Counted from the stretch's first letter, positions 28,271-56,886 are shown. The stretch: DNA of 64,000 bases from Candidatus Latescibacterota bacterium (GCA_965217585.1 OZ244561.1:6368001-6432000), one strand, 5' to 3'. The notes: generated by a model not told the origin, from the sequence alone. Numbers and translations are program-made.

Positions 28271-29968
28271 ATGGCGTTTGATTACTTCACCATTCAGGCC
28301 CTCGCTCAGGAGCTGCGGGTGCGCTTGCAAGGGGCGGTCATCGAGCGGGCCTATGCCCAGCCTACGGAACTTGCCTTCGCGGTTGACGAGGGCGATTGGC
28401 TGTACGGCGCGAGCGGCAGGGAAGGATTGCTCTGCCTGCGGTGCGAGGCTTGGCCGCGGCCTTGGCGGGCGGGCGATGGCCCGGAAAAGTACTTGGTGCA
28501 GGCGCGGATCGTGGCCGTCGAAGCCGAGCGCCACGAGCGCATCTTGCGCTTGCGCCTAGAGCGCCGGGACCGCGACGGTCGCGCGAGCTTTGGCGTCTTA
28601 GTGTGCGAACTCATTCCCAACAAAGTGCGGTTTATTCTCCATCGCCAAACCGATGGCACGATTTTGGGCTACTGGGGAACAGCCAAGGACAAGTCACCCG
28701 TGGGCGCACCGTACCAGCCACCCGAGCCATCCGGCCGACTGCTGCCCGGTACGGACGCACCCAGTGCGTGGCGCGACCGGCTGGCGAGCGCGGATGCGGT
28801 CTTGGAAAAGGCAGCGAGGCGCTGGTTGGCCGGAGCAGACGCCTCGCTGGTGCGCGAGTTGATCTTCCGCAGCCAGGAGTGCGGGGCGCTTCCTGTCAGC
28901 AGTATTGCTGACACAGACGAGCCGGCCACAGCCTTGTGGACCGTGGCCACGGAGGCGTACACCAGCGCGGCGGCTGGCCGCAGCTACGTGTGGCAAGAGG
29001 CGGGCCGGTTCCACTTTTCCGCCCTTGAACCGCGTCGTTTACAAGGGGCCTACGAGCAGTTTGACGCGGTCAGCGCAGGGATATGGGCGGCGTGCCAAAA
29101 GGAGCGGGCACAGCGCCGGGCGCAGCGGGCGCAGCAACAGATCCGCAGGCGGCTGGTCCAAACTTTGAAAAATGCTCGGCGGCGTTTGGCCGCCATGCAG
29201 GTCGAATTCGACGAGGCCACGCGTGCCGAGGAGTACAAGCGAAAGGGCCACGCGCTATGGGCCAACATGGGGCAGCTATCCGGTCGGCCCGCGCAAGTAG
29301 AGTTGGCCGACCTCTTCGATTCAGAGGGGGAATCGACCCTGTCGATTGACTTGGATGCAAACCGCAGCTTGGCGGAAAACGCCGCATCCTATCTAAAGAC
29401 CGCGCAAAAATACGAGCGTCGCCAACAAGTCCTGCCGCAGCGCTTAGCCGAGCTCGGCCGCCAGTGTGCCCAATACGAGGATTGGATCGGCGCGGTGGAT
29501 GCCGGTACTTGGGAAACTAACGACGCGCTACAAAAATGGTTGGAGAGTAAGGTGACAAGCACCGGCAAAATGGCAAGCAAGCAGCCCCAGGCCCATCCCC
29601 GGCGCTATAGGACATCTACGGGGTGGTCGGTGTGGGCCGGGCGCAACAACAAGGAAAACGACGTGCTGACGCACAAAATGTCCGCCCAAAACGATCTGTG
29701 GTTTCACGCCCGGGGGTACTCAGGCTCGCACGTCGTCCTCCGGAGCGAAGGCCGCAAAGAAGCCCCCAGCAAGCAGACGATTGAAGAGGCCGCGGCCTTA
29801 GCCGCGTATTGGAGCAAGGGCAAGACAGCGAAAAAGGTCTCCGTGGCGTACACCATGGTAAAACACGTCACCAAGCCGCGTGGAGGCGCGCCCGGGCAGG
29901 CGCTGTTGCGCCGCGAGAAAACAATCATCGTGGAGCCGGCCTTGTTAAAGAAAGAATTAGCTGAATAG
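28271..29968 (+). CDS. rqcH: NFACT/RqcH (FbpA-like) ribosome quality-control protein
   Basis: MAFDYF N-terminus, ENA..Y, GRNNKENDVLT, DLWFHARGYSGSHVVL, AAYWSK, KPRGGAPG. Confidence 0.85.
   Translation: MAFDYFTIQALAQELRVRLQGAVIERAYAQPTELAFAVDEGDWLYGASGREGLLCLRCEAWPRPWRAGDGPEKYLVQARIVAVEAERHERILRLRLERRDRDGRASFGVLVCELIPNKVRFILHRQTDGTILGYWGTAKDKSPVGAPYQPPEPSGRLLPGTDAPSAWRDRLASADAVLEKAARRWLAGADASLVRELIFRSQECGALPVSSIADTDEPATALWTVATEAYTSAAAGRSYVWQEAGRFHFSALEPRRLQGAYEQFDAVSAGIWAACQKERAQRRAQRAQQQIRRRLVQTLKNARRRLAAMQVEFDEATRAEEYKRKGHALWANMGQLSGRPAQVELADLFDSEGESTLSIDLDANRSLAENAASYLKTAQKYERRQQVLPQRLAELGRQCAQYEDWIGAVDAGTWETNDALQKWLESKVTSTGKMASKQPQAHPRRYRTSTGWSVWAGRNNKENDVLTHKMSAQNDLWFHARGYSGSHVVLRSEGRKEAPSKQTIEEAAALAAYWSKGKTAKKVSVAYTMVKHVTKPRGGAPGQALLRREKTIIVEPALLKKELAE
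28894..28913. repeat. family II-like palindrome in-frame in rqcH
   Basis: TGTCAGCA-GTAT-TGCTGACA. Confidence 0.4.
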
Positions 29969-29993
29969 TCATATAATCTATAATATGTCAAAT
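29966..29993 (+). other. dif/XerCD-like site A
   Basis: TAGTCATATAA-TCTATA-ATATGTCAAAT; contains the rqcH stop and the miaA ATG. Confidence 0.7.
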
Positions 29994-30958
29994 AAATCTC
30001 TCATCCTAATCACCGGACCCACCGCCACAGGCAAAACAGAAATAGCCCTCAAAACAGCCCAACACTTGCCCAAAGTGGAAATCATCTCGGCAGACTCGCG
30101 GCAAATCTACCGCTACATGGACATCGGCACGGCCAAGCCAACCGCTGAACAGCAGAACCAATGCGCCCATCACTTGCTCGATGTGCTCGGTCCCGAGGAA
30201 AACTACAGCGCGGGAGCGTATGCTCGAGCCGCGCGGCGTATCGTTGGGCAGATTTGGAACAGGGGGGGGCTGCCCGTCATGGTGGGAGGGACGGGCCTGT
30301 ACTGGCAGAGTGCATTGGACGGCTGCTTTGAGACGACTTCACCGCGACTTTAGGCGCGACAACCGAATACGCGCCGATCCGCGCCGAATTGCAAAATCGC
30401 CTGCATTGCGAGGGTCTTGCATCCCTATATGAGGAGTTGGGTCGTTGGGATCCGGTGGCGCAAGCGCGTTTGCAGCCGGGCGATGCGCAGCGGATCCTGC
30501 GGGCGTTGGAGGTAGCGCTGGCCGGAAAGAGCACGCTCAGCGCACTATGGCGGGAACGCAAAGGGCGGCCCCTTGTGCAGCAGCCGCAGATGATCAGCCT
30601 GACCATGGCGCGCAGCCGGCTCTATGAGCGGATCGACAAGCGGGTCGAGCAGATGGTGGAACGGGGATGGGTCGAGGAAGTCCGCGCCTTGCGTGAAAAG
30701 GGATACGATCCAGGTGCCAGCGCCTTGGGAACCCTAGGCTATCTCGAAATGTGCAGTGCGCTGGCAGGGCATTGCCCTTGGAAGGAAGCCGTTGAGCGAA
30801 CCAAACAGCGCACCCGCCACTTGGCCAAACGACAAATGACCTGGTGCCGCCGCGACCGTCGCTTGCGCGAATTAGACCTCGACGTATGGGGAAAGGCCGG
30901 CGTCGTCCAGCGCATCGTCGTCGGGTGGGAGTATCGATGGGGCAGTAGGCTGGGTTGA
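29985..30958 (+). pseudogene. miaA: tRNA dimethylallyltransferase, frameshifted (29985-30353 plus ~30359-30958)
   Basis: GPTATGKT, SADSRQIYRYMDIGTAKP and VGGTGLY in one frame; QRILRALEV, LGY and AKRQMTW in another. Could be an assembly error. Confidence 0.85.
30333..30364 (+). repeat. family I element at the miaA frameshift
   Basis: ACGACTTCACCGCGACTTTAGGCGCGACAACC; aligns with the copies at 2503 and 49400. Confidence 0.6.
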
Positions 30959-30983
30959 CAGCGGTTGGGGCCTCTCCTACCTT
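30955..30983 (+). promoter_or_regulatory. sigma70-like promoter for tRNA-Gly
   Basis: TTGACA, 17 bp, TACCTT. Confidence 0.6.
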
Positions 30984-30998
30984 AGGACCGCAAAATTA

Positions 30999-31073
30999 GC
31001 GGGAGTAGCTCAGGGGTAGAGCGCAAGCTTCCCAAGCTTGATGTCGCGGGTTCGATTCCCGTCTCCCGCTCCA
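30999..31073 (+). tRNA. tRNA-Gly (anticodon CCC)
   Basis: Full cloverleaf: acceptor GCGGGAG/CTCCCGC, anticodon arm CAAGC-TTCCCAA-GCTTG, TTCGATT loop, encoded CCA. Confidence 0.97.
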
Positions 31074-31074
31074 T

Positions 31075-34437: not shown

Positions 34438-34438
34438 C

Positions 34439-43105: not shown

Positions 43106-43130
43106 GGACGGTCTTGAGCCACAGAATGAG

Positions 43131-43164
43131 AAGGCTATCGAGGCTATCTCGATAGTCTTTTCTT
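43131..43164 (+). terminator. intrinsic terminator after pnp
   Basis: AAGGCTATCGAG-GCTAT-CTCGATAGTCTT followed by TTCTT. Confidence 0.7.
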
Positions 43165-43176
43165 ATTATATGGTAT

Positions 43177-44481
43177 ATGGATGAGCAAATGGAGTCGATT
43201 CAGGTGGCTGATATCGGCCGCTATGAGGGCCGAGAAGTGGTGCTGCGAGGTTGGTTGTACAACAAGCGATCGAGTGGCAAGCTGCATTTTCTGCAGCTAC
43301 GCGACGGCAGTGGTGTGGTGCAATGCGTTGTTTTTAAAGGGGATGTCGAGGCCGAGTTGTTCGAGCGCTGCGATCACTTGCCGCAAGAATCTTCGCTCGT
43401 AGTCCGCGGTCAAGTGCGGCGGGAGGCGCGCTCACCCATCGGCTATGAGGTGGGAGTCCGCCACCTCGAAGTCGTGCAGGAGGCCGAGCCATATCCCATC
43501 ACACCTAAGGAACATGGGGTGTCCTTTCTCCTAGACCACCGCCACTTGTGGCTGCGGTCTATGCGGCCTGGGGCCATCCTCAAGATCCGCAGCGAAATCT
43601 GCAAGGCTTGCCGCGACTTTATGGAAGAGCGCGACTTTGTCCTCGTGGATGCGCCGATTTTTACACCCGCGGCCTGCGAAGGGACCTCGACTCTGTTCGA
43701 AACCGCGTATTTCGACGACACGGCTTATTTGACCCAGAGCGGTCAGCTTTATATGGAAGCGGCCGCTATGGCCTTGGGTAAGGTCTATTGTTTTGGGCCG
43801 ACGTTCCGCGCTGAAAAGTCCAAGACCCGTCGGCACCTGACCGAGTTCTGGATGATCGAGCCGGAGATGGCGTATTGCGATCTAGAGGGTGCCATGGCCT
43901 TGGCCGAGGACATGGTCTTGTACGTACTCGACCGCGTGCTCGACCGCCGCCGCGAAGAGCTAAAGCTGCTCGACCGAGATACCGCCAAGCTGGAACGGGT
44001 CAGCCGGCCCTTTCCGCGCATGACCTACGGTGAGGCTACCGAGCGCTTGACAGCCCTCGGTAGCGACATCGCATGGGGGAGCGATCTGGGTGGGGACGAC
44101 GAAACCGTCCTCACCTCCGAGTTCGAATCGCCAGTTTTCGTCCACCGCTATCCCAGCGCGGTCAAAGCATTCTACATGAAGGAAGATGCCCAAGACCACC
44201 GTTTAGCCCTGTGCATGGACCTGTTGGCACCCGAAGGATACGGGGAAATCATCGGGGGCGGGCAACGCGAAGACGATCTGGCCGTCTTGCAGCACAAGAT
44301 CGCCACGCATCAATTGCCCCAAGAAGCCTTTAGCTGGTATCTCGACTTGCGGCGCTACGGCTCGGTTGAGCACGCCGGCTTTGGCATGGGAATCGAGCGG
44401 GTGGTCGCTTGGTTGTGCGGCGCCAAGCACGTGCGCGAGACCATTCCATTTCCGCGCATGATGCAGCGCCTCTATCCATAA
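43177..44481 (+). CDS. asnS: asparagine--tRNA ligase
   Basis: [61 protein letters not shown]. Confidence 0.96.
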
Positions 44482-44509
44482 ATGTCTTATAAGGATTTTT
44501 ATGTCAACC
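44482..44509 (+). other. dif/XerCD-like site B
   Basis: ATGTCTTATAA-GGATTT-TTATGTCAACC; begins immediately after the asnS stop and contains the leuS ATG. Confidence 0.72.
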
Positions 44510-47407
44510 GAAACAAAAAAAGGCCAATACAACTTCCAAACCATCGAAACCAAATGGCGATCCTGTTGGGAACAGGAGAAGACCTATCAAACGCTGGGAC
44601 CGGGGGATCCCGGTTTCGATGGCAGCAAACCCAAGTGCTACATCCTCGATATGTTTCCCTATCCAAGCGGCGCGGGGTTGCACATCGGCCATCCCAAAGG
44701 GTATATCGCCAGCGACATCTACAGCCGCTACAAAAGGATGCAGGGATTTAACGTCCTGCATCCGATGGGGTTCGACAGTTTCGGGTTACCGGCCGAGCAA
44801 TACGCTATCGAACACAACATTCATCCAGCGACCGTTACCGAGCAGAATATCGATGCAATGCGCGGCCAATTGCAGTTTCTCGGGCTGTCGTTTGACTGGG
44901 CCCGCGAAGTGGTCACGTCGCGGGCGTCGTACTACCGCTGGACCCAGTGGATTTTTGTCCAGCTATTCGATAGCTATTTCGACGCAGACGATATCTGGGA
45001 AGACAGCAATGGACGCCAAATAAAGGGGCGGGCCAAGTCCATCGCCGATTTAGAGGCCCAATTTGCTGCTGGCAGGGCGTTGTCGGCAGCAGATCGCCAA
45101 AGTCTTGGCACCGACGCGGCCTGGTCCGCACTAACCGCGGCTGAGCGGCAAGCTGTGCTGAACAACTACCGGCTGGCGTACCAGCAAGAAGCCGTCGTCA
45201 ACTGGTGCCCTGGCTTGGGTACTGTGTTGGCCAACGAGGAGGTGACTAGCGAAGGCCGCAGCGAGCGGGGCGATTTCCCTGTGTATCGCAAACCGTTGCG
45301 GCAGTGGACGATGCGCATAACAGCCTATGCCGAGCGGCTCTTAGAGGATTTGGACTTCGAGCTGGAGGACCGCAATGGTGAGCCTTTCCGGCTCGATTGG
45401 CCAGAACCCATCAAGCGGATGCAGCGCAACTGGATCGGCCGCAGCGAAGGGGCCGAAGTGTGCTTCGATGTTCTCAATCCGCAAAGCGACGCGGTCGCCG
45501 AGCAGTTACCCGTGTTCACGACCCGGCCCGACACGCTTTTTGGGGCGACCTTTATGGCCATTGCCCCTCAGCATCCGCTGGTGGATTCCGCCAAGGAATC
45601 CTATTTGGTCCCTAGTGATTGGCCCGACGGGACGCCTGAGCAGTGGAAGGGGAGAGGGGGTTCTATCCGGGAAGCCGTAGAACATTACGTAGTTGGGGCT
45701 GCTCTCTCCACTGCGGATGAGACCAAGGAGAAAACGGGCATCTTTTCCGGCATCTACGCCCGTAATCCAGTCAATGGACAGAAAATTCCAATTTTCGTCG
45801 CCGATTACGTCAGCATGGACTACGGCGCGGGAGCCATTATGTCCGTGCCGGCCCATGACGAGCGCGATTTCGCCTTCGCCACGGCTTATAACTTGGATAT
45901 TGTGCGGGTGGTTGATGGAGGCGAAGGGGAGTCCACAGGATGGTATGCGGGGGAGGGGACCGCGATCAATTCGCCTTCAGTACTGAAGGCGGACAACGCG
46001 CCGGCCACCGGCGATAATCCATACGCCATCACTGGGTTGGCAACGGCCGCGGCCAAAGCCCAGATCGTCGCTGCCCTCGCTGCCCAAGGACGAGGCCAAG
46101 CTGCGGTAAACTACAAACTGCGCGACTGGACCTTCGCTCGGCAGCGCTATTGGGGAGAACCTTTTCCACTGGCTACGCATCCCGATGGATATTCCATCGA
46201 GGTCCCGCCTCCGGTGGAGCTGCCGGATCTAGAGGATTTCAGGCCAGAGACCTCCGACGATCCCACCCAACCCGTTTCGCCGCCACTGCACCGGGCCGGA
46301 GCGGAGTGGACAACGGTGGAAATTAACGGGGTGGCCTGCCAGCGCGAGCTCAACGTCATGCCCCAATGGGCTGGTTCTTGCTGGTACTATCTCCGCTTTA
46401 TCGATCCGCACAACGAAGAAGCCTTCTGCGACCCGGCCAAGGAAGGCTACTTCATGCCTGTTGATCTCTACATTGGCGGCGCGGAACACGCGGTGTTGCA
46501 CTTGCTCTACGCTCGGTTTTGGCACAAGGCCCTCTACGACCTGGACCACGTATCCACACCCGAGCCGTTTAAGAAGCTGTTCAACCAAGGCATGATGACC
46601 GCCGATGCCTTTCAGGACGATCGCGGCGTGTATATCGACATCCGCGAGGTCGAGTTCCGCGACGGGGAGCCTGTTGAGATGGGGACGGGAAAGATGCTGC
46701 GCCGGTCCTCCGGCAAGATGGGCAAACGCTACAAAAACGGATTGCCGCCCGAAGAAGTCGGCGAGGAATTTGGCGTGGATACTCTGCGGCTGTACGAAAT
46801 GTACATGGGGCCGCTCGAAGCGAGTGCGCCGTGGAGCATGGAAGGCATTCGCGGGATGCAGCGCTTCTTGCAGCGCGTTTGGCGCAACTTTGTCGATTCA
46901 GATCGACTCGTAAAAATAGGGGAGCGCGCTGCGTTGACGACGGATCTGGAACGCAAGCTGCACCAAACCATCCAAAAGGTAACCGATGACATAGAGGGGC
47001 TGCGGTTTAATACGGCCATTGCCGCCTTGATCGAGCTAAACAATCTGTTGGTGTCCTTAGAGGAAGTGCCGCAGGCCGTCGCCAAACCCTTCTTGATCCT
47101 GCTAGCACCCTTTGCTCCGCATATTGCCGAGGAGCTATGGGAAATGGCGGATTGGGGGACGGGAGACCTCAGTCACCAAAGCTGGCCGAAGTGGGATGTA
47201 GCTAAGGCCGCCGAGGACATGATCGTAGTGCCCATTCAGGTCAATGGCAAAATGCGCGGCCAAGTCGAAGTACCGGTCCGTACTGGAGAAGACAAGATAA
47301 AGTCCTTGGTGCTCGACATGGAGAGCATCCAGAAATACGTGGCCGATGAGACAGCGATAAAGCGATTTATCTGGGTGCCGAATAAGATCGTCAATATTGT
47401 GGTGTAG
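44501..47407 (+). CDS. leuS: leucine--tRNA ligase
   Basis: MFPYPSGAGLHIGH, FTTRPDTLFG, RQRYWGEP, GGAEHAVLHLLYARF; KMSKS variant KMGKR. Confidence 0.97.
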   Translation: MSTETKKGQYNFQTIETKWRSCWEQEKTYQTLGPGDPGFDGSKPKCYILDMFPYPSGAGLHIGHPKGYIASDIYSRYKRMQGFNVLHPMGFDSFGLPAEQYAIEHNIHPATVTEQNIDAMRGQLQFLGLSFDWAREVVTSRASYYRWTQWIFVQLFDSYFDADDIWEDSNGRQIKGRAKSIADLEAQFAAGRALSAADRQSLGTDAAWSALTAAERQAVLNNYRLAYQQEAVVNWCPGLGTVLANEEVTSEGRSERGDFPVYRKPLRQWTMRITAYAERLLEDLDFELEDRNGEPFRLDWPEPIKRMQRNWIGRSEGAEVCFDVLNPQSDAVAEQLPVFTTRPDTLFGATFMAIAPQHPLVDSAKESYLVPSDWPDGTPEQWKGRGGSIREAVEHYVVGAALSTADETKEKTGIFSGIYARNPVNGQKIPIFVADYVSMDYGAGAIMSVPAHDERDFAFATAYNLDIVRVVDGGEGESTGWYAGEGTAINSPSVLKADNAPATGDNPYAITGLATAAAKAQIVAALAAQGRGQAAVNYKLRDWTFARQRYWGEPFPLATHPDGYSIEVPPPVELPDLEDFRPETSDDPTQPVSPPLHRAGAEWTTVEINGVACQRELNVMPQWAGSCWYYLRFIDPHNEEAFCDPAKEGYFMPVDLYIGGAEHAVLHLLYARFWHKALYDLDHVSTPEPFKKLFNQGMMTADAFQDDRGVYIDIREVEFRDGEPVEMGTGKMLRRSSGKMGKRYKNGLPPEEVGEEFGVDTLRLYEMYMGPLEASAPWSMEGIRGMQRFLQRVWRNFVDSDRLVKIGERAALTTDLERKLHQTIQKVTDDIEGLRFNTAIAALIELNNLLVSLEEVPQAVAKPFLILLAPFAPHIAEELWEMADWGTGDLSHQSWPKWDVAKAAEDMIVVPIQVNGKMRGQVEVPVRTGEDKIKSLVLDMESIQKYVADETAIKRFIWVPNKIVNIVV
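45970..46000 (+). repeat. family II element, in-frame inside leuS
   Basis: TTCGCCTTCAGTACTGAAGGCGGACAACGCG; perfect 20-bp palindrome core; encodes SPSVLKADNA. Confidence 0.7.
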
Positions 47408-47454
47408 GAGTGCTAGGCTGCAATGGGACTTGATCGTTTCAATAGGAGAAAAAA

Positions 47455-47811
47455 ATGACTTGCTACTATACAAACAGATATAACGAACAATTCATACAAA
47501 TTGAACATTACCGACGATATCCTCAAATGATGCCGTTTGTCGGAAAAGAATATGAGGCAGGCGGCATACTTTTATTGTTAGAAAGCCACTATCTACCCGA
47601 GAGAAGTCGGGTTCATCTTGACGCAGATCATTGGTATAGCGGAAATTCGGATTCACTTAGCGAGGAAGAAAAGATATGGATACATACTAGAAATATAACC
47701 AACGATAAATTGCATTGGGAAGATGGAAGAGGATCCATAGGAAAAATAAATTTAGCATTGATAGAAGCGTTAGGGCAAGAAAGGGAAGAGAGGGATAATA
47801 TGTTTCAATAA
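47455..47811 (+). CDS. AT-rich hypothetical protein, probably truncated
   Basis: GGAG RBS; much lower GC than neighbours; MMPFVGKEY...ESHY; stop abuts dif-like site C. Confidence 0.55.
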   Translation: MTCYYTNRYNEQFIQIEHYRRYPQMMPFVGKEYEAGGILLLLESHYLPERSRVHLDADHWYSGNSDSLSEEEKIWIHTRNITNDKLHWEDGRGSIGKINLALIEALGQEREERDNMFQ

Positions 47812-47839
47812 ATGTCTTATAATTTTTAATATGTAAATA
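47812..47839 (+). other. dif/XerCD-like site C
   Basis: ATGTCTTATAA-TTTTTA-ATATGTAAATA. Confidence 0.72.
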
Positions 47840-47854
47840 AAAAAACAAAAATCC

Positions 47855-48829
47855 TCAACTACCAATCCCAATATAATCAGACGCATTATCGAGCAGCCTC
47901 TCGCGGTTTTCGTAGTAACGCATCGTCGTCTTTAGATCCTTGTGGCGCAAATGGGCTTGCACTTGCTGAGGTTTAGCTCCGCCTTCAATCGCCAGAGTGC
48001 AGCACGTGTGGCGGAACATGTGCGCGGTGACGTTTTGCGGAAGGCCGGCGCGCAGGGCGTACTTCTTGACGATGTGATTTACCGATTGATCGGTCAGCGG
48101 CTGGCCGCGCGAATGGTTGCGCGACAGGCTGATGAAGACCTTGCCGGTCGTCGGCCAGCCCGCCACCTGTAGTTGTTGTTTGTATAGTTCGAGATGATGT
48201 AGGACGACGCTTTGTAGTTTGATCTCCTGCGCCACGCCCGATTTAGTCTGGGGCAGGTGCAGGATGTAAAAGACGCCCTCCAAGGATATATCCTCCCAGG
48301 CGACGCCCGCCACTTCGGAGCGGCGCAGCCCGCCGAAAGTGAGCAACTGAAAGATGGCCGCATCCCGCGTGCGGACCAAGTCGTCTTTTTCCTCGGCAAT
48401 AGCTTGCTGCATCTTGCGCAGCACCTCATTGGAAAGCGCTTTGCCGGCCAGTGTTTCGTCCACCTTGTAGCCACGCACCAAGGTGGAGTCGGCGGGATTC
48501 TTCTCGATGTGGCCTAGGGCCACCAACATCTTGAACAACGATTTCAGGCTGGACAATTTTCTGTTGATGCTGCTGCGCTTGTAGCCTTCGCCGGCGAGCT
48601 GATTTCTAAAGGCGACCACATGCTCAAAGGTGATTGACTGTAAGACGGCGAGGGAGACGTCATTTAGCTCTAGGCCGATGGATAAAAAGAAATGCTGGAG
48701 ATCGGCGTAATAAGCGCGCCGGGTGCGCTCGCTAAGCTGGCCGCTGAGAAATTGTTCCAAGGGATCGTCCGACACCAACGCTGGTGTTGGCGTCAGCCTG
48801 CGGACGACCGGATTGAGTGTTTCGCTCAT
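47855..48829 (-). CDS. tyrosine recombinase/integrase (N-terminal SAM-like domain plus catalytic domain)
   Basis: TRRAYYADL, GLRRSE (R), TK (K), HMFRH (HxxR), HLRH, TTMRY (Y). Confidence 0.93.
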   Translation of the reverse strand: MSETLNPVVRRLTPTPALVSDDPLEQFLSGQLSERTRRAYYADLQHFFLSIGLELNDVSLAVLQSITFEHVVAFRNQLAGEGYKRSSINRKLSSLKSLFKMLVALGHIEKNPADSTLVRGYKVDETLAGKALSNEVLRKMQQAIAEEKDDLVRTRDAAIFQLLTFGGLRRSEVAGVAWEDISLEGVFYILHLPQTKSGVAQEIKLQSVVLHHLELYKQQLQVAGWPTTGKVFISLSRNHSRGQPLTDQSVNHIVKKYALRAGLPQNVTAHMFRHTCCTLAIEGGAKPQQVQAHLRHKDLKTTMRYYENRERLLDNASDYIGIGS

Positions 48830-48925
48830 AAATACTCGCTGGGGCTTAATTGGTATCTAATGTCCCAAATATAGCGAACATCGCGACATTTTGCCGCTGC
48901 ATATCACATGGGATTCGCCTAGTTT

Positions 48926-48961
48926 TTATACTATTGATAATGCCTGTTATCGTTAGTATAA
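48926..48961. promoter_or_regulatory. inverted repeat with 6-bp spacer upstream of the recombinase (candidate recombinase site)
   Basis: TTATACTATTGATAA-TGCCTG-TTATCGTTAGTATAA; arms match 13/15. Confidence 0.65.
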
Positions 48962-48979
48962 TGACCAAAATTGAAGAAA

Positions 48980-50743
48980 CTAGAATTTTCGCAATAAACG
49001 CTCCATATCGCTCAATTTCATCCTCGCCATAATCGGCTTGTCCGTCGGGCTTATGTGCGGCGAGTCAACCTTTAGCAATTCGTTGATTAAGTGCGCCATT
49101 TCCTCGGCGTTCAGTTTCTGCCCCTTCTTGATGCTCGCTTTACGCACGTAAGCCAAGACGAGTGCTTCGCGCCAAGATCGGCCCGAATGCTGGCCATCCC
49201 GCACGTCGTTCAATAGCTGATAAAAAACATCGCCTTCGCCCCAGCGATCCAATTCGGCGGGAACAGCTTCCACTAGCACCGTCCGCGCGCCAAAATCCCG
49301 CACCACAAAGCCCAGCTTGGCAATGTCAGCCCGCACTTGGTTGAAGACCGCAAAATCCGCTGCGCCCATCTCTAGCTGTATGGGAAAGAGCAATTGCTGG
49401 CTTGTCTCGCCAAGGCGAGGTGAAGCGCTGGCCACGCCGTCCATTTGCGCCATAGCCCGATCGTAGTTGATGCGCTCGTGCGCGGCCTGCTGATCGACGA
49501 AGAGCAAGCCATCGGCTACCTCGACGAGGATGTACTGGTTGTGGACCTGCCACATCGCGGCGTCTTCGGCTAAGGCGACTTTGGCCGCGGCTGGTGCGAC
49601 GAAGGCCATCGCGAGTTGGTCATCTGCATCATGGGTTGTTGTCTCGGCCGCTCCGGGCGCAGGCAAGCTGTGCAACACCGGCGACGTCGGTTCGCCCACC
49701 CGGACCGAGACCGGCGCGACGCCCGCAGCACTGCTGTCATAGACAAAGGATTGCGTATCGGGCAGCCTGAGCTTCTGCCGGACGCTGTTCTCTATGGCCG
49801 CGATGACCTGCCCTTCGTTGGCCAAGCGAATCTCCCGTTTTGTCGGATGGACGTTGACGTCGATTTTCTTGGGATCCATATCGATCCAGAGCATGAATAC
49901 CGGATGATGCCCATCGGGCAGCAGTCCCCCAAAGCAGCGCTGTACAGCACTGGCCATGAGCCGCGAATAAATGGGCCGCCCCTGAACGATGAGGTACTGC
50001 TTGCCTTTGCTCCGACCGCAGTGTTCGGGGCCAGCCAAGACCCCTTCGATTTTGAGGCCCTCCTCCTCGTGAGCGAGATCCAACAGTTCGGCGGCTGGAA
50101 TGCCCAACAACTCGGCCGCCCGTTCCCGACGAGATGCCGGCGTGTAGCTCAATACCTTGCGATCTTGGTGCTCTAGTTCAAAGCTGAGGGCCGGGTAGCT
50201 GGCGGCTAAATGGATGATGGTCTGTGCCACATGGCGGGCTTCCGTATCGACGGGCCGCAGGAACTTACGCCGCGCCGGCGTATTAAAAAACAGGTTCCTC
50301 ACCACGATGGTCGTGCCGCGTGCTCGACCCATACTGTGCATCTCTCGCTCTATCCCCCCTTCCACGACCAAGCGCGTCCCGGCTTCGTCTTGCTGCGCGC
50401 GCGATTCTATCGCCAAGTGAGCTACCGCCCCAATACTGGCTAGGGCCTCGCCGCGAAACCCCAGCGTCTGAATGTGAAATAGGTCGGCCACCGAGGCCAT
50501 CTTGCTCGTGGCATGACGGCGCACGCACAAAGCAATATCCTCTCTGTTCATGCCCGAGCCATCGTCGGTCACGACAATCGACTGCTTGCCGCCGGCCTTG
50601 ATTTCCACGCGGATCTTAGTGGCACCCGCATCGATCGAGTTTTCGACCAATTCCTTCACGACCGAGGCCGGCCGTTCCACTACCTCACCGGCGGCGATTT
50701 TTCCAATGAGACTTTCGTCGAGAACGCGAATGGTACTCGCCAT
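48980..50743 (-). CDS. mutL: DNA mismatch repair protein MutL
   Basis: KIAAGEVVERPASVVKELVENSIDAGA, TLGFRGEAL, DVNVHPTKREI, DQQAAHERI. Confidence 0.96.
   Translation of the reverse strand: MASTIRVLDESLIGKIAAGEVVERPASVVKELVENSIDAGATKIRVEIKAGGKQSIVVTDDGSGMNREDIALCVRRHATSKMASVADLFHIQTLGFRGEALASIGAVAHLAIESRAQQDEAGTRLVVEGGIEREMHSMGRARGTTIVVRNLFFNTPARRKFLRPVDTEARHVAQTIIHLAASYPALSFELEHQDRKVLSYTPASRRERAAELLGIPAAELLDLAHEEEGLKIEGVLAGPEHCGRSKGKQYLIVQGRPIYSRLMASAVQRCFGGLLPDGHHPVFMLWIDMDPKKIDVNVHPTKREIRLANEGQVIAAIENSVRQKLRLPDTQSFVYDSSAAGVAPVSVRVGEPTSPVLHSLPAPGAAETTTHDADDQLAMAFVAPAAAKVALAEDAAMWQVHNQYILVEVADGLLFVDQQAAHERINYDRAMAQMDGVASASPRLGETSQQLLFPIQLEMGAADFAVFNQVRADIAKLGFVVRDFGARTVLVEAVPAELDRWGEGDVFYQLLNDVRDGQHSGRSWREALVLAYVRKASIKKGQKLNAEEMAHLINELLKVDSPHISPTDKPIMARMKLSDMERLLRKF
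49400..49426 (-). repeat. family I element, in-frame inside mutL
   Basis: GCTTCACCTCGCCTTGGCGAGACAAGC; stem CTCGCC/GGCGAG; encodes ASPRLGETS just before QQLLFP. Confidence 0.6.
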
Positions 50744-50749
50744 ATATCC

Positions 50750-51274
50750 TCACAACTCGGCCCAGAGCCGCTCGGCCTGCTGCCGGAATTCGGCTTGGGT
50801 AATTTTGCCTTGTTTGAGCGCGGTTTCGAGGTCGCGCAAGCGGCGGCGTGGCCCCCCTCCCCCTTTAAGATCCAGCCGTATTTGGGACCAGATGTGCCAC
50901 CCCCCCACGCCGAGCAACAAGGCGATAAAGACCGCACCACCCCACCACGAATCATCTTGCTCTTGGCGCACCACTCCCCCCTTTTGTCGCCAATCTTCGG
51001 CCACGGCTGGGTCGGGCTCGGCTAGTGCGATCCGCTTGGCCATCGTCGTGCCGTTGGTCCCTTGGACGCGCACGGCCCTTTTGAGCTGCCAAGTAAATCC
51101 CCGGGGTTGCACGATTAAATGCTCGATGAGATCGGCCTCTCTTATCTGATCGAACTGCTCCTTGGTAACCGGCACAGCCATAGGACTGAGCAAGTTGAAC
51201 AGCAACACGATCGCCAACAAGAAAGATGCTAACGAAAGAGCGAAGTACGTGGGTGGTGTGGATGGTTTGTCCAT
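50750..51274 (-). CDS. two-TM membrane protein with SHOCT-like C-terminus
   Basis: Two hydrophobic segments; C-terminal QGKITQAEF. Confidence 0.6.
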   Translation of the reverse strand: MDKPSTPPTYFALSLASFLLAIVLLFNLLSPMAVPVTKEQFDQIREADLIEHLIVQPRGFTWQLKRAVRVQGTNGTTMAKRIALAEPDPAVAEDWRQKGGVVRQEQDDSWWGGAVFIALLLGVGGWHIWSQIRLDLKGGGGPRRRLRDLETALKQGKITQAEFRQQAERLWAEL

Positions 51275-51291
51275 ATGTTTCTTTTATTTTT

Positions 51292-51319
51292 TATTTACAT
51301 ATTATATTTTATAAGACAT
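51292..51319 (-). other. dif/XerCD-like site D
   Basis: Minus strand ATGTCTTATAA-AATATA-ATATGTAAATA; arms identical to site C; 1 bp after the upstream stop. Confidence 0.75.
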
Positions 51320-51320
51320 T

Positions 51321-52121
51321 TTATTTTGATTGTCTGCGGTTCAAGACCGCGTCTTGTCTTGCCGACGTACGCATCCATTCCAAGAGACGATAGCTTTCGG
51401 CCACCTCTCCCAAACCCAACAGCGGCTGGGCACGCCCTTGGATACAGGCGACGAAATTGCGATAGTACGCCGCCAGATCGTCCGCTTTCCATACCCAAGG
51501 CCAAGACGTATCGACTATTTCGTCCTGTGCATACGAGCGGATCCGCAAAGCCGGGGCCACAGCCGGAAAGTCGAGGAGCGCAATCGAGCCTTCGACGCCA
51601 TTGCGCATCCTCAGCAGGGCGACCGACACGTCCTCCATGCGCCCGTGATGAAAAAAGTTGCGCATCCTGCTGTACAGCACATCTACCGACCCCCAAGTGC
51701 TCAGTAGCAGGTCGCATACGTCCAAGGCCGCTTGATTGCAGATCGTCTCGCGATCAATAGGATCGAATAAAGCCGAATCAAAAGAAAGTTCCAAGGAGTA
51801 ATGCGCTACACCCTGCTGGGCGGCCAGAGCCGTGCAAAAGTGCGTATGTCTCCCTAAGGACAGCGCACACGCATTGGGATGGCTATTTGCAAACGGCTCC
51901 TGTACGGGATGGGTCGCCATAACGTGCAGACCGGCCGCCACGGCCACGCCCATCCAATGCGATTTATCGTCCACGTGTAACAGCACCAGCCCATCTATTT
52001 TTTGTTCCAAGATCGCGGCGCAGTCGGCTTGGTGTACGAGCTGGATATCGCGGCAGTTCCGCAAGGCATCCCGATGGGCGGCCACCTCGCGGGCATGGCC
52101 TGCCACGCCGAGCGTCATCAT
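51321..52121 (-). CDS. Gfo/Idh/MocA-like oxidoreductase (divergent)
   Basis: N-terminal LGVAG, AGLHV, EDVSVALLRMRNGVEG; weak family similarity. Confidence 0.5.
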   Translation of the reverse strand: MMTLGVAGHAREVAAHRDALRNCRDIQLVHQADCAAILEQKIDGLVLLHVDDKSHWMGVAVAAGLHVMATHPVQEPFANSHPNACALSLGRHTHFCTALAAQQGVAHYSLELSFDSALFDPIDRETICNQAALDVCDLLLSTWGSVDVLYSRMRNFFHHGRMEDVSVALLRMRNGVEGSIALLDFPAVAPALRIRSYAQDEIVDTSWPWVWKADDLAAYYRNFVACIQGRAQPLLGLGEVAESYRLLEWMRTSARQDAVLNRRQSK

Positions 52122-53059
52122 GGTTTCTTGCTCGCCTTAATCCGCTCGCGGAGCCGCTCGCTAAACGCATGTGCCGCGTATTCCCCATCCAAGCGCAAGA
52201 GATAATCCATCGCTATGGTCTCGGCGAGTACCGTGATATTTTTGCCGGGAAACAGCGGTATGAAGACCTCGGGCACCTCGACACCGAGGATTACCACCTT
52301 GTTGTCTTCGAAGCCAAGGCGTTCGTAGGCATATTTTTCGTCCCAATCGACTAGGTTGACCAATACCTCCACCCGCTTCTGCCGCCGCGTCCCCCACACG
52401 CCGAACATCTTTTTTACGTCTAGGATGCCGATGCCGCGAATTTCGATGTGATCTTGGAGCATCTCCGAGCTACGCCCCACCAAAATGCCTTGGGGCTTGC
52501 GATTGATGATGACCATATCGTCGGCCACTAACCGATGCCTGCGCTCGACCAAATCCAAGGCGACCTCGCTTTTGCCAATGCCGCTGCGACCGCGAAAGAG
52601 CAGCCCTACCCCAGAGACATCGACTAGCGTTCCATGCATGGACACTTGGGGTGAGAACACCTCGTCGAGGTAATAGCGGAGGAGATGGGTAAATTCGGCC
52701 GTATTGAATCCAGACTTCAAAAGCGGAACCGCGCACTCATCGGCTAGCTGCCGTAGCTCGGAGTGTATGCGCCCCCGACCGGTCAACACCACGCATGGAA
52801 TATCGAATTGATACATGATTTTGAGGGCTTGTCGCCGTCGGTCTGGGGACAGACTGCGCAGGTACTCCATTTCGGTATTGCCCAAGAGCTGCACTTGATC
52901 CAAGGTAAACAGCTCGACGAAGCCCGTCAGAGCCAAGCCGGGGCGATGGATGTCGCTGTTGTTGATGGTCCGCTGTAGCCCCTCGGTGCCGGCGATGAGC
53001 TTCAGCCGTAGTTGCTGCCCGTAGGTCGCTAGTAGATCCTTGATGGCCAGTTCACTCAT
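52118..53059 (-). CDS. hprK: HPr(Ser) kinase/phosphorylase
   Basis: HRPGLALTG, HGTLVDV, GRSGIGKSE, LVADD, IEIRGIGI. Confidence 0.96.
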   Translation of the reverse strand: MSELAIKDLLATYGQQLRLKLIAGTEGLQRTINNSDIHRPGLALTGFVELFTLDQVQLLGNTEMEYLRSLSPDRRRQALKIMYQFDIPCVVLTGRGRIHSELRQLADECAVPLLKSGFNTAEFTHLLRYYLDEVFSPQVSMHGTLVDVSGVGLLFRGRSGIGKSEVALDLVERRHRLVADDMVIINRKPQGILVGRSSEMLQDHIEIRGIGILDVKKMFGVWGTRRQKRVEVLVNLVDWDEKYAYERLGFEDNKVVILGVEVPEVFIPLFPGKNITVLAETIAMDYLLRLDGEYAAHAFSERLRERIKASKKP

Positions 53060-53957
53060 CGTTACTCAAGCTTTCGAAGATGCGCCGGTACCCTTCGTAG
53101 CGCACCGATGCCACACGACCGGCAGCCACAGCCGCGCGAACCGCGCAACCGGGTTCGTGCAAGTGGCTGCAATCGCCGAATTGACACTGGCCACGCAGGG
53201 GTTCTAGCTCGGGGTAATACGCCGCTAGCTCAGCGGGTTTTACCCCCCACAAGCGGAGCTCTTTAACCCCTGGTGTATCAGCCACATAGCCGCCTTGTTG
53301 CAACTTGAACAAATGCACGACCGTGGTTGTGTGCCGACCCCGGTTGTGGCGCTTCATTATTTCCTTTGTCTTGAGTCCCAATCCCGGTTCGATGCCGTTG
53401 AGCAAGGTCGATTTGCCGACCCCAGACTGGCCGACCACGGCCGTGCTGCGATTGATCAGGGCTTCTTTGAACGCGCCCATGCCGTCGCCTCGTAGAGCAC
53501 TGGTGCGATAGATTGGATAACCGAGGACTTCGTAAGGCGAGGTCAGGGTGCCCACGGCCGCTGGGGAGACTAAATCGACCTTATTGATGCAGATCACGGG
53601 CTGGAGATTCCCCTTGATCGCCATGACAATCGCTCGGTCGATAAAGCCGCGGCGGGGGCTTGGTTGGCAAGCGGCCACGACGACGACCAATTGCTCCATA
53701 TTGACAAAGAGGATCTGCTCAAATGGGCGTGTCCCACTGGCTCCACGCGAGAACTTGGAAGATCGGGGATGCACCGCTTCGATGACGCCCGTCCGTTCGG
53801 CCGTAGGCACCACCTCGACCCAGTCGCCGGCGACAACCGGGGAGCTGGTCTTGCGGCACCCGGCCTTGAGACGGCCCCGAATCTCGCATTGCCAGTGGCT
53901 TCGCCCGACCTCGACGAGGCACCGTAGCCCAGAAACTCTGATGATGCGGCCCTGCAT
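53052..53957 (-). CDS. rsgA: ribosome small-subunit-dependent GTPase A
   Basis: NKVDL, GQSGVGKSTLLN, GRHTTT, DTPG, zinc finger CQFGDCSHLHEPGC. Confidence 0.96.
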   Translation of the reverse strand: MQGRIIRVSGLRCLVEVGRSHWQCEIRGRLKAGCRKTSSPVVAGDWVEVVPTAERTGVIEAVHPRSSKFSRGASGTRPFEQILFVNMEQLVVVVAACQPSPRRGFIDRAIVMAIKGNLQPVICINKVDLVSPAAVGTLTSPYEVLGYPIYRTSALRGDGMGAFKEALINRSTAVVGQSGVGKSTLLNGIEPGLGLKTKEIMKRHNRGRHTTTVVHLFKLQQGGYVADTPGVKELRLWGVKPAELAAYYPELEPLRGQCQFGDCSHLHEPGCAVRAAVAAGRVASVRYEGYRRIFESLSNDE

Positions 53958-53973
53958 GCGCGCCCGCCCCTGC

Positions 53974-54696
53974 CTACTCCCCTTTAGCGAGGCGCTCGGC
54001 TAGGTAGTTGGGGTAGCCGAGGTTGTCGATCTTCTGTTGGGTCAGCTTGACTGGGTATTCGACGCGCTGGAGTTCGATCCATTGTTCGTCGGTATCCCAC
54101 AGGGTGTACGCCGACCGCCAGTCGCCATCGCGGGGTTGGCCGACGCTGCCGACGGAGACCAAGTATTGATGATCCCCTATGGCGGCCGTGGCCGAGGTCA
54201 GGGGCATGGGCTTGTCGCGCATCTTGCAGTAAATGCGCGCTTCGTGGGTGTGGCCGACAAAAGCCAATGGCCATTTGAGGTGGCTCATGCACCAAGTGAC
54301 GCGATCGTACATGAGTAGGGGCTCCCATTCTTCGGGTTTGAGGGGATTGGCATGGGACAACGCCGCATTGCCCTCCACGCGCCGAAAGACCCCTTGCCGC
54401 AAAAAGTCGCGTTCTTCCTCCCCGAATACCTCACATGCTTGGTAGAGCGAGGGACGAGCCAGCAGGTTAAAAGACTGGATGCGCACCGGCTCCAATACAG
54501 CTTGGTCGTGATTGCCCAATACGATCTGTGCCTCTACCTCCTTGAGGCGATAGAGGCAGCCCAAAGGATCGGGACCGTACCCCACGATGTCCCCCAAGCA
54601 GATAATGCGCTCGGCACCGGCGTTGGCCGCAGCGATCAATACGGCCTCTAGCGCTTCGAGATTGGCGTGGATATCGGCGAGCACTGCGATCTTCAA
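53974..54696 (-). CDS. metallophosphoesterase
   Basis: DIHAN, GDIVGYG, GNHD, GHTH, GSVGQPRDGD. Confidence 0.92.
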   Translation of the reverse strand: MKIAVLADIHANLEALEAVLIAAANAGAERIICLGDIVGYGPDPLGCLYRLKEVEAQIVLGNHDQAVLEPVRIQSFNLLARPSLYQACEVFGEEERDFLRQGVFRRVEGNAALSHANPLKPEEWEPLLMYDRVTWCMSHLKWPLAFVGHTHEARIYCKMRDKPMPLTSATAAIGDHQYLVSVGSVGQPRDGDWRSAYTLWDTDEQWIELQRVEYPVKLTQQKIDNLGYPNYLAERLAKGE

Positions 54697-54707
54697 AGGG
54701 CCCCGCC

Positions 54708-55634
54708 TCAGTTGAATAGTGCGCTAATGGAGGTTTCTTCGTGGATAGCGCGTATGGCGCTGGCAAAGAGAGAAGCCACAGAGCACACCTGCATCATGGG
54801 TGCGCGGGCGTCCGCCGGCAAGGGAATCGTATCGGTGATGGCGAGGGCTTGGAGGCTGGATTGATCCAGCCGCGCTATCGTCTCCTTGGTTAAGGTGCCG
54901 TGGACGCAACCAGCGTAGATTTTGCGTGCCCCGCGCTCCTTGACGGCGGCGGCGCCCTTGAGGATGGAAGTGCCGGTAATGATCGCGTCGTCGAAGAATA
55001 CGACATCGCGGTCGGCTACATCGCCAATAACCCTGTTTTCCCCGGCGCCCTGATCAACCACGACGAGGGGCAACCCCAACCGCTGGGCATAGGTCTCGGT
55101 GACCTTGGCGCGGCTGATGTCTGGCGCGGCCGCGACCAAGTTGTCTCGGTCGAGGTCGGCGTAATAAGCGCATATCGCCGGGACGCCACTCAGTTGGTCC
55201 ACTAGGATCCGGCTAAAGCCCATAGTCTGCGGGCTGTGTAAGGTCATGGTGAGAATGCGGTCCGCCCCGGCTTCGGCGATCAGATCTGCCACCAAGCGGC
55301 CGGCCACGGAAATCCTCGGCTCGTCCTTGCTGTCGGCCAGAGCATACGGATAGTACGGCAAGACGGCGGTGATGCGGCCAGCCGAGGCGTATTTTAGGGC
55401 GTCGAGGGCTATGAGTAGCTCCATCAAGTAGTCGCTAACGGGCGGACACGAGGTTTGAATAAAGAACACATCGCGGCCGCGCACGTTTTCACAGATCTTT
55501 ACCTTTATATTTTCGTTGCTAAAGTCGATAAACTCGATGCGCCCTGGCTCAATGGCCAGCGACTGGTAAATGCCCTTAGCCAATGTGGGATTGCTCCGCC
55601 CGGCGAAAACCTTGAGATCCGTACTACCCATCAA
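54708..55634 (-). CDS. prs: ribose-phosphate pyrophosphokinase paralog (degenerate motifs)
   Basis: ENVRGRDV, ASAGRITAVLPYYPY, TDTIP; KRR loop absent. Confidence 0.85.
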   Translation of the reverse strand: MMGSTDLKVFAGRSNPTLAKGIYQSLAIEPGRIEFIDFSNENIKVKICENVRGRDVFFIQTSCPPVSDYLMELLIALDALKYASAGRITAVLPYYPYALADSKDEPRISVAGRLVADLIAEAGADRILTMTLHSPQTMGFSRILVDQLSGVPAICAYYADLDRDNLVAAAPDISRAKVTETYAQRLGLPLVVVDQGAGENRVIGDVADRDVVFFDDAIITGTSILKGAAAVKERGARKIYAGCVHGTLTKETIARLDQSSLQALAITDTIPLPADARAPMMQVCSVASLFASAIRAIHEETSISALFN

Positions 55635-55642
55635 TAGGCCCC

Positions 55643-56311
55643 TTAGAACATGGCTAGTGCGGCGCGGGCTTGAGCGGCAATCGGGTACTGGGTGAACGTG
55701 CGACTGACCTCTTTGAGTAGGGCCTGTTGCTTGTCGCTCTCGCCGGCCAACCCATATATGCGAGCTGCTTCCATCCGCGCCATGGCCTCGCGGATGGTAC
55801 CCGCTTGTTGGGCCGCATAGGATTCGTAGTGCTGGGCCGCGGCCAAGAACTGCCCTTCGGCTTCGAGACAGGCACCAAGACCGCTCTGGGCCGCGTAGGC
55901 CAGGACATCCAAAGGCTCGTAGTTGTCCAAATAGCTCTGGTAGTAGCCCCGGGCCTCGACATAGCGGCCCTGTGCGTAGTGGAGATTGGCCAAGAGCACG
56001 ACCCCTTGGGCTGCGGCCGGGGTCCCGGCATAAGAGGACACTAGCTCTTCGGCCAAGCGGATTGCCTCGGTCGGCTCTCCGCCCTGCTCGACCATCAGCA
56101 CATCGCCGAGTAGGGCCGCAGCTTTGAGCCTATTAGCCTCTTTGGACTCGATAAAATAATTGATGGCCATAATGACCACTATCACTGCGACGACCCCACC
56201 GCCAAAGAGATTGGCGCGCTCTTTGACGTACTCGACTGCCTGCATGATCCATTCGACGAACTCGTCTTCGCGGAGTTCGCTCTTGCTCAGTTTACGGCGT
56301 TCACTCGACAT
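55643..56311 (-). CDS. membrane-anchored TPR protein (YfgM-like)
   Basis: ELREDEF, a TM segment, then TPR helices. Confidence 0.75.
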   Translation of the reverse strand: MSSERRKLSKSELREDEFVEWIMQAVEYVKERANLFGGGVVAVIVVIMAINYFIESKEANRLKAAALLGDVLMVEQGGEPTEAIRLAEELVSSYAGTPAAAQGVVLLANLHYAQGRYVEARGYYQSYLDNYEPLDVLAYAAQSGLGACLEAEGQFLAAAQHYESYAAQQAGTIREAMARMEAARIYGLAGESDKQQALLKEVSRTFTQYPIAAQARAALAMF

Positions 56312-56347
56312 GAAGGTATGGCGTCTCCATCGTTTTGGGTTCTGGTT

Positions 56348-56860
56348 TCAATAGACGATAGCGCTTTCCAATTTGTACCCGTGCAAGAGGTCGCGGCCCG
56401 ACAGAAAGCTCAACTCAGCCAAAACGCTGATGCCTGAGATAACAGCCCCTAGTTTTTCGAGCACTTGACACGTCGCCGCCAAGGTCCCACCGGTGGCCAA
56501 AACATCATCCACGACCAATACCTTTTGCCCCGGTGCGATGGCATCGGTGTGTATTTCTAAGGCCGTCTCACCGTATTCGAGCGCGAAGTCGCGGCGCAGC
56601 GTGGCCGCCGGTAGCTTACCCGGCTTGCGCACCGGCACAAAACCGCATCCCAATTCGAGTGCTATCGGCGTCGCGAACACAAATCCGCGGGCCTCTATAC
56701 CGGCTACTAAGTCCACTTCGGCGTCCGCAAAGGGTTCGAGCATGATTTGGACCGCGGCCGATAAACCAGCGGGGTCTTTGAGCAGCGGCGTGATGTCTTT
56801 GTATAAGACACCGTCTTGCGGGAAATTGGGGATTTCGCGGATTAGGTCTTTTAGGTTCAT
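56348..56860 (-). CDS. apt: adenine phosphoribosyltransferase
   Basis: KDITPLL, GIEARGF, RKPGKLP, LEYG, VDDVLATGGT. Confidence 0.96.
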   Translation of the reverse strand: MNLKDLIREIPNFPQDGVLYKDITPLLKDPAGLSAAVQIMLEPFADAEVDLVAGIEARGFVFATPIALELGCGFVPVRKPGKLPAATLRRDFALEYGETALEIHTDAIAPGQKVLVVDDVLATGGTLAATCQVLEKLGAVISGISVLAELSFLSGRDLLHGYKLESAIVY

Positions 56861-56886
56861 TTTACATATTATATTTTATGAGTCTT
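56859..56886 (-). other. dif/XerCD-like site E
   Basis: Minus strand AAGACTCATAA-AATATA-ATATGTAAAAT; overlaps the upstream stop and the apt ATG. Confidence 0.68.

Follow-up and report, generated by a model that had tools for sequence, protein, structure and literature searches.

Sites and genes of the locus

The stretch of DNA analysed here is a window of 64,000 nucleotides (nt) from Candidatus Latescibacterota bacterium (GCA_965217585.1, OZ244561.1:6368001-6432000), part of a single 7.32-Mb contig with 59.5% G+C. Coordinates refer to this window unless they are marked as genome positions. The subject of this report is an array of dif-like sites, A to F, of which A to E lie inside the window and F lies beyond its end, together with a gene for a divergent Xer-like tyrosine recombinase between sites C and D, referred to below as the terminus Xer (Table 1). 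A previous reading of the sequence alone had claimed five AT-rich sites of 28 bp, and their coordinates, strands and sequences were all confirmed. These five sites are real, yet that reading had overlooked the sixth site, the position of the GC-skew maximum and the strict polarity of the array.

Each site consists of two 11-bp arms around a 6-bp spacer, where the left arm ends in TCTTATAA and the right arm holds the core TATGT(A/C)AA. Both arms are predicted, by their sequence, to be recombinase-binding arms. A position weight matrix (PWM) trained on the five sites of the window was run over the whole genome, a check proposed in the sequence-only reading, and it returned only six strong sites, with scores of 37-50 and a runner-up at 23.6. 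The scan placed site F on the minus strand at genome position 6,442,301, about 10 kb past the window end. By a second, PWM-free core score, the same six sites are the only ones genome-wide to reach the maximum. The left arm ATGTCTTATAA occurs three times in the genome, each time within the window, and the 19-nt IUPAC core read backwards has no match in this genome. As there are only six matches genome-wide, the motif represents a local family of six and no general type of promoter.

The six sites are confined to 44 kb and are arranged as +++/---, with A, B and C on the plus strand and D, E and F on the minus strand. The cumulative GC skew has its maximum at genome position 6,416,853 (window position 48,853), between C and D, and its minimum at 2.66 Mb. 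Given this position of the maximum and the two facing groups of sites, the array straddles the replication terminus. The genes converge on the terminus as well.

Every site of the window fills, or nearly fills, a tiny intergenic gap, and the proposal that each site starts at or within 1 bp of an upstream stop codon holds for all five. The first three bases of A are the stop codon (TAG) of open reading frame (ORF) 28271-29968, and B and C start one base past the stops of ORFs 43177-44481 and 47455-47811. Site D starts 1 bp beyond the stop of ORF 51321-52121 on the minus strand, and the first two bases of E are overlapped by the stop of the 53-amino-acid ORF 56885-57046, also on the minus strand. 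A feature that the sequence-only reading did not mention is that the start codon of the following gene lies within the right arm in both A and B (ATG of miaA at 29985 and of leuS at 44501, respectively). For the phosphoribosyltransferase ORF 56348-56860, the ATG starts with the last two bases of E.

Table 1. Features of the array within the window
Feature	Position	Strand	Remarks
Site A	29966..29993	+	outermost on left replichore side; overlaps stop of NFACT-family gene and ATG of miaA
Site B	44482..44509	+	spacer GGATTT holds Shine-Dalgarno-like GGA; right arm holds leuS start codon
Orphan ORF	47455..47811	+	118 amino acids; ~400 bp, 37% GC, between leuS and site C
Site C	47812..47839	+	inner site; flanking genes convergent; stop codon of terminus Xer 15 bp away
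C-D invertible segment	47812..51319		3.5 kb; holds recombinase, mutL and ORF for 174-amino-acid membrane protein
Terminus Xer	47855..48829	-	third, divergent Xer-like tyrosine recombinase, 324 amino acids; Pfam Phage_integrase and SAM_1
mutL	48980-50743		in C-D segment
174-amino-acid ORF	50750-51274		in C-D segment; predicted two-pass membrane protein
Site D	51292..51319	-	inner site; faces C
Site E	56859..56886	-	overlaps stop of 53-amino-acid ORF and ATG of phosphoribosyltransferase gene

Relation to the single dif of related genomes

Nine relatives that lack the terminus recombinase were compared, three of them members of the family and six belonging to two others. Within 20 kb around the pattern match each of the nine carries a single site of 11-6-11 layout with the same inner arm motifs, and the motif common to the six sites and to the single-copy sites of the nine relatives is ..YATAA N6 WTATGTMA.. 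The GC skew falls from left to right across this site in nine of nine relatives, and changes from positive to negative in six of them. Each of the three same-family relatives has exactly one pattern match in its whole genome, and the relatives from other families have one to six, the extra matches being scattered and away from the dif candidate. The sites of the window closely match the same-family versions of this dif, and it is this direct match to the single-copy dif of relatives that identifies the six sites as dif-type.

The dif/Xer-type identity suggested in the sequence-only reading is thus borne out by the match to the single dif of relatives, by the position at the terminus, by the Xer-like gene alongside and by synteny breaks at the sites (see below). 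A dif site is expected at the terminus, and here the skew maximum lies between C and D; it is also expected to undergo strand exchange inside the site, for which the breakpoints of C-D and A-F inversions within the 28-bp sites provide indirect evidence. The array departs from the rule of one copy per chromosome, with six copies in this genome and four to six in other genomes of the genus.

One of the nine, the family member G074, has an inverted second copy, so that two dif-like sites stand just 25 bp apart (locus L085, 9946-10026). It has no terminus recombinase by query, and the gene is present in seven of the eight genomes of this genus; loss of the gene from between the paired sites seems to have taken place. 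The 19-nt pattern has no match in genomes G073, G097, G114, G090 and G130, which divergence of the motif may explain.

Inversions between facing sites

The orientation of the C-D block was surveyed in 25 loci of the genus that were aligned to the window; like all relatives used in this study, they are not independent samples. The block is collinear with its flanks in 14 of the 25 loci and inverted in 10, and one locus (L023, 3.3 kb) is too short to be classified. No other arrangement was found. Two of the inverted states were read from one flank only: the one-flank loci are L005 and L022, which also stand outside the leuS tree. Loci L015 and L002 are without a PWM-scored site C. The C-D inversion had been suggested in the sequence-only reading, which had also asked whether synteny breaks coincide with the sites. 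They do so, for C-D in 10 of 25 loci and for A-F in one of the 16 other genomes of the genus in which the A-F junctions were surveyed.

The leuS gene lies outside the inverting block, and a leuS tree of 23 rows requires at least five changes of state in C-D orientation. Four strongly supported nodes of this tree part close relatives of opposite state. At base level, the DNA to the left of the left arm swaps between sites C and D, and the DNA to the right of the right arm stays in place, which locates the breakpoints inside the 28-bp sites. In flipped sister genomes the spacers stay with the right arm. Hence, the exchange probably occurs at or left of the boundary between left arm and spacer.

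Two further inversions were seen. Genome G009 has an inversion of the entire A-F array, the breakpoints of which fall within A and F. In a different genus (G068, locus L026) the recombinase segment has the opposite orientation to that in all other distant loci with which it aligned, and the breakpoint intervals contain both bracketing sites. In total, this amounts to at least seven independent inversions (at least five of C-D, one of A-F and one in the other genus), all of them between facing sites; the sites found as breakpoints are A, C, D and F. No deletion, excision or module exchange between sites of the same orientation was seen among the genus loci compared, and gene order across all sites is otherwise conserved within the genus.

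Contigs of sequencing runs X19, X20, X21 and X23 were mapped on window positions 42000-58000, and they bridge C and D in the orientation of the window only. In run X23 the summed contig depth, otherwise about 50-80, drops to 5-10 across positions 47340-48941, which hold the orphan ORF and the recombinase gene; this population may differ there at the 95% identity level.

Constraint on arms and spacers

The description of conserved arms and variable spacers, given earlier from the five sites, extends to the genus, where arms are near-invariant and spacers drift. The conservation table covers 25 genomes and 92 instances of the sites, of which 23 are B, 47 are inner sites and 22 are E. Positions 2-9 of the right arm show a 100% majority match within each class, the 22 instances of E included, and positions 4-11 of the left arm show 85-100%. 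In the 23 instances of B, left-arm positions 4-11 and right-arm positions 2-9 are all at 100%. For comparison, these genomes have 242 four-fold degenerate sites in leuS, of which only 12% show no variation. The inner spacers, on the other hand, have a mean majority match of 0.73 versus 0.83 for four-fold degenerate leuS sites, and they are nearly pure A/T, with 6 G/C among 264 letters.

Spacers are rarely shared between sites of the same genome. Identical spacers occur in 1 of 43 same-orientation pairs versus 6 of 85 facing pairs, and all six of the latter are inner pairs. The inner pair has identical spacers in 6 of 22 genomes versus 2.2 expected by shuffling (P ~0.009, the genomes being related). 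The spacer AATATA shared by D and E, pointed out in the sequence-only reading, is present as described, although it is peculiar to this genome and constitutes the one case among the 43 same-orientation pairs. This distribution fits exchange between facing sites, and we infer that same-orientation sites are kept from recombining where a deletion would result.

Site B deserves a separate remark. Its spacer starts with GG(A/T/G) in 23 of 23 genus instances and is placed 5-8 nt before the leuS ATG, so that one sequence appears to double as recombinase site and as ribosome-binding region.

The terminus recombinase and its distribution

The terminus Xer scores 129 bits with the XerC model and 116 bits with the XerD model, for which the NCBIfam cut-offs are 335 and 330. 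It combines a SAM-like N-terminal domain with a Phage_integrase catalytic domain, which places it in the tyrosine recombinase superfamily, and its catalytic residues (R, K, HxxR, H, Y) are all kept. It is 26% identical to the XerC-type protein and to the XerD of the same genome. Both of these are encoded elsewhere: a canonical XerD with 347 bits, above the curated cut-off, and the XerC-type protein with 313 bits on the XerC model, which passes the general Xer subfamily cut-off. FtsK with a gamma domain and SMC (1035 bits) are present as well. Tus and RTP gave no match in this genome (PF05472 and PF02334), with both models responding in control genomes.

An orthologue of the terminus Xer (E <= 1e-40), always as a single copy, is encoded by 52 of the 66 other genomes of the family, against 0 of 84 in a sample drawn from 13 further families of the phylum. 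The GC skew drops from left to right at the orthologue in all 36 related loci that extend at least 6 kb to either side of the gene; it changes from positive to negative in 34 of them, and long ORFs converge there. These loci include relatives that are just 58-68% identical.

The association of gene and sites reaches beyond the genus. A PWM-independent inverted-repeat search detects an inverted dif-like pair that brackets the recombinase in loci L026, L027, L036, L048, L050 and L053, and the PWM adds bracketing pairs in L025, L038 and L046. Most of the remaining distant loci show either one recognisable site, directly beyond the recombinase stop codon, or none. The PWM of the genus finds no site above threshold (score > 14) near the recombinase in L033, L034, L042, L051 and L052, and in several loci (e.g. 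L040, L041, L044, L045, L048) it finds only matches below 20. The PWM-independent search yields noise-level matches in most of these loci, the exception being L048 with its dif-like pair. A genome of another genus (G068) carries an array of five sites over 49 kb, arranged as ++/---, of which the outermost minus-strand site is weak. Outer sites in L029, L030, L032 and L054 keep the polarity rule, with one exception in L035.

Stability of the sites, inserts and passenger genes

Site F is present in 16 of 16 other genomes of the genus checked. Site A can be recognised at its junction in 12 of the 16; it has diverged in G150, and it is replaced by unrelated DNA in G148, G005 and G007, where the right arm with the miaA start is kept whole or in part. 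In G148 (locus L117, 11891-12554) the left arm and spacer have given way to a 660-bp insert with an ORF of 141 amino acids, and in G005 (locus L103, 3033-3138) to 105 bp; the right arm is kept in both. In the closest relative (L002) site C, at about 11011-11039, has a spacer of 7 bp and is missed by the PWM for this reason. The site may be weakened or altered there.

The orphan ORF beside site C has no match in Pfam or NCBIfam. Among the genus loci aligned it is found in this genome only, which marks it as an insertion beside C, outside the conserved system. A different insert occupies the same spot in loci L049 (11020-12150) and L021 (10960-11680), as an ORF of 313 amino acids in the former and a decayed remnant in the latter. 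The 313-amino-acid ORF may resemble putative transposases of the Rpn/PD-(D/E)XK type. None of the inserts beside C (this genome, L021, L049) or at A (G148, G005, G007) carries a second or degenerate site.

The genes between the sites are core genes, namely leuS, a class II aminoacyl-tRNA synthetase gene, miaA and mutL. The inverting segment carries mutL in this genus, and in other genera the bracketed segment holds the recombinase only. The 174-amino-acid ORF of this segment has its own small family as its only close atlas cluster, and neither this ORF nor a 266-amino-acid ORF led to an informative family. Downstream of site A, miaA falls into a pair of ORFs, 29985-30353 and 30389-30958, and the former holds only the N-terminal third of the IPPT domain; the split is either a frameshift or an assembly error.

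A probable multiplication of the dif locus, with an Xer paralogue at the site

Based on these data, the dif locus of this chromosome has probably been multiplied to six mirrored Xer-type sites astride the terminus, with an Xer paralogue of its own. In terms of known systems, the array is a mirrored, conserved, six-copy variant of Xer/dif, with a third Xer that is specific to the family and a terminus segment that flips recurrently. The terminus Xer would bind and cut the sites, either by itself or jointly with canonical XerC and XerD, with exchange probably on the left-arm side of the spacer. Each site may still recombine with its own sister copy and in this way contribute to the resolution of chromosome dimers. 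Spacers private to a site would block deletions between same-orientation sites and so protect the essential genes in between. Inversions between facing sites would be symmetric about the terminus and keep the polarity of genes and sites, and this symmetry may be why they are tolerated. As for the purpose of six copies, orthogonal dif copies, barriers like the XDS of Bacillus subtilis (see below) or a fork trap are possible.

The sequence-only reading had interpreted the sites as borders of shufflable modules or docking points for cassettes, in the sense of plasmid-type dif (pdif) modules or integrative mobile elements exploiting Xer (IMEX). Conserved gene order, core genes between the sites, the lack of same-orientation exchange among the loci compared and inserts without a second site speak against this view. 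Shuffling survives in the narrow form of symmetric inversions; cassettes find no support.

With the canonical XerCD/dif system the array shares the 28-bp site of 11-6-11 layout at a skew-defined terminus and the genes for an XerC-type protein, XerD and the FtsK gamma domain. It differs by its six mirrored copies, by a third Xer at the site and by inversions between copies. In single-recombinase Xer systems (XerS/difSL, XerH/difH, archaeal XerA), the recombinase gene stands beside its site (PMC1914069; PMC5357621; PMC11840125). The present case resembles them in that a recombinase gene adjoins the presumed terminus site and is conserved across a family; in those systems, however, the single recombinase replaces XerC and XerD and acts on one site, whereas here an XerC-type protein and XerD are retained and the gene is bracketed by inverted sites.

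A recombinase gene between inverted sites is also known from the Hin H-segment, an invertible segment that carries its own serine recombinase. As in that system, the bracketed segment flips recurrently here. The present enzyme, by contrast, is a tyrosine recombinase at the replication terminus, and neither a switched promoter nor a phase-variable output was identified. A search of the literature yielded no account of a mirrored array of several dif copies at a terminus, none of a third Xer encoded there and none of Xer/dif in Latescibacteria.

Several points weigh against this interpretation. Chromosomes canonically have a single dif, whose relocation or duplication is considered harmful. Six copies that are able to recombine, with essential genes among them, constitute a risk of deletion, for which the private spacers offer an explanation by inference only. 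D and E share one spacer in this very genome. Sites B and E were never breakpoints in the loci and genomes compared, and they may be binding-only. The mirrored polarity of the sites is confounded with gene orientation, as all genes converge on the terminus. The role of the terminus Xer in binding and cleavage, and the identity of the acting recombinase, are predictions from sequence. Every genome analysed is a metagenome-assembled genome, so that orientation states are those of an assembly consensus; likewise, the contigs of the four runs list no strand-changing joints, although such contigs cannot show minority forms. The instances in the conservation table were chosen by PWM threshold, which biases them towards conserved arms. 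Finally, few genomes without the third Xer were checked, and the co-occurrence of array and third Xer rests on related genomes.

Alternative explanations

In Bacillus subtilis, according to papers that cite Karaboja et al. (2021), dif-like sites in the terminus region (XDS), which exist besides the site that serves dimer resolution, are bound by XerD, which unloads SMC complexes derived from the origin. By analogy, the outer sites, perhaps all six, may be protein-binding landmarks, with recombination as a side effect. We regard this as unlikely on balance, but as an explanation to be taken seriously. Unloading of Smc-ScpAB at dif-like terminus sequences is an established precedent in these citing papers, and the present genome likewise combines several dif-like sequences across its terminus region with an SMC. 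Mirrored polarity suits a machine that moves from origin to terminus on both arms, and is what any such machine would select for. Moreover, B and E never served as breakpoints. The XDS are reportedly sites of XerD only, which are bound and not recombined. In the present array, conservation extends to both arms of every site, recombination has involved at least four of the six (A, C, D and F), an additional dedicated recombinase is present and the array spans only 44 kb; the sites are dispersed in the terminus region as the XDS are, yet these four are not binding-only. An XDS-like role is compatible with the multiplied dif locus proposed above.

More generally, the array could be a terminus-defining device, in which a domesticated Xer on polar, dif-derived sites acts as a one-way barrier to replication forks, FtsK or SMC. 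We consider this doubtful. It would be an independently evolved fork trap or terminus insulator, and the flipping of the inner segment would be a by-product or a regulatory switch. The more specific version of a replication-fork trap, where the Xer-like protein is the polar barrier and forks may enter the terminus without being able to leave it, appears less probable still. Tus-Ter and RTP-Ter are known examples of asymmetric sites in two opposed groups around the terminus, and the tus and rtp genes likewise adjoin the innermost Ter sites. The array resembles them in its two opposed groups of asymmetric sites around the skew switch and in the candidate binding protein encoded next to the innermost sites, and the same polarity rule is seen in other genera (G068; L026, L029, L030, L032, L054). 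However, no homologue of Tus or RTP was found in the genome, the sites are of dif type and recombine, which a trap does not need, and a switch of skew at dif is normal without a trap. The polarity, as mentioned, is confounded with gene orientation, and we know of no tyrosine recombinase that acts as a polar fork barrier.

The sites could also be promoters or operator boxes of one regulon, TATAAT-like and co-oriented with the genes. TATAAT is contained in A, D and E, and sites lie directly upstream of or over start codons with an orientation that follows the genes. We find this very improbable, as the six sites are confined to the terminus, C points towards the 3' end of a convergent gene and lacks a gene that it could drive, and the sites match the dif of relatives and contain inversion breakpoints. 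A scan with the sigma-70 consensus called only one of the four sites that it covered, and such matches are not in excess in the region (8 found versus 6.9 +/- 3.1 expected). Incidental promoter activity as a dual role is possible.

The nearest published arrangement that we found is the dif-module island of Acinetobacter, whose sites alternate as C/D-D/C, are shared with plasmids, are thought to be inactive in dimer resolution, and lie away from the main dif, flanking accessory or resistance genes and insertion sequence elements (PMC12907356). The present sites would by analogy be scars or attachment sites of IMEX or pdif-type modules, and the DNA between them present or past mobile cargo. Many dif-like sites within tens of kb of chromosome are common to the two arrangements; multiple sites are typical of IMEX arrays; and variable DNA lies beside C in three genomes and at A in three (the G148 insert, the G005 replacement and the altered flank of G007). 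This explanation is nevertheless hardly tenable. Unlike in the islands, the sites flank core genes at the terminus, in an order conserved across the genus, and they are mirrored and vertically conserved, with the array at the same junctions in up to 16 other genomes. Their strict +++/--- orientation is neither alternating nor that of direct repeats around cargo, the inserts lack a second site, and no inter-site segment was seen here in another genomic context or as a circle, so that mobile cargo in varying contexts is not what the data display.

Homologous recombination of RecA type between short inverted repeats, with the sites themselves inert, is about as implausible, since the near-identity of the inner 28-mers in some genomes is set against at least seven independent events at 28-bp sites, differences between A and F at several positions, arms under purifying selection and an adjacent intact recombinase gene that is conserved at family level.

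Implications for the family

According to this analysis, a third Xer recombinase encoded at the terminus is maintained across a family of uncultured bacteria, at least two genera of which have mirrored arrays of four to six dif copies around essential genes. The array would constitute a natural example of mutually incompatible ("orthogonal") recombination sites that are told apart by their spacers, and the system lets the limits on recombination between dif copies be probed. The set of sites and recombinase might yield new orthogonal recombination tools. Beyond this, the finding bears on structural roles of Xer proteins at the terminus outside Firmicutes, such as SMC unloading and barriers to forks or FtsK, and on the question of how a replication terminus can flip without cost.

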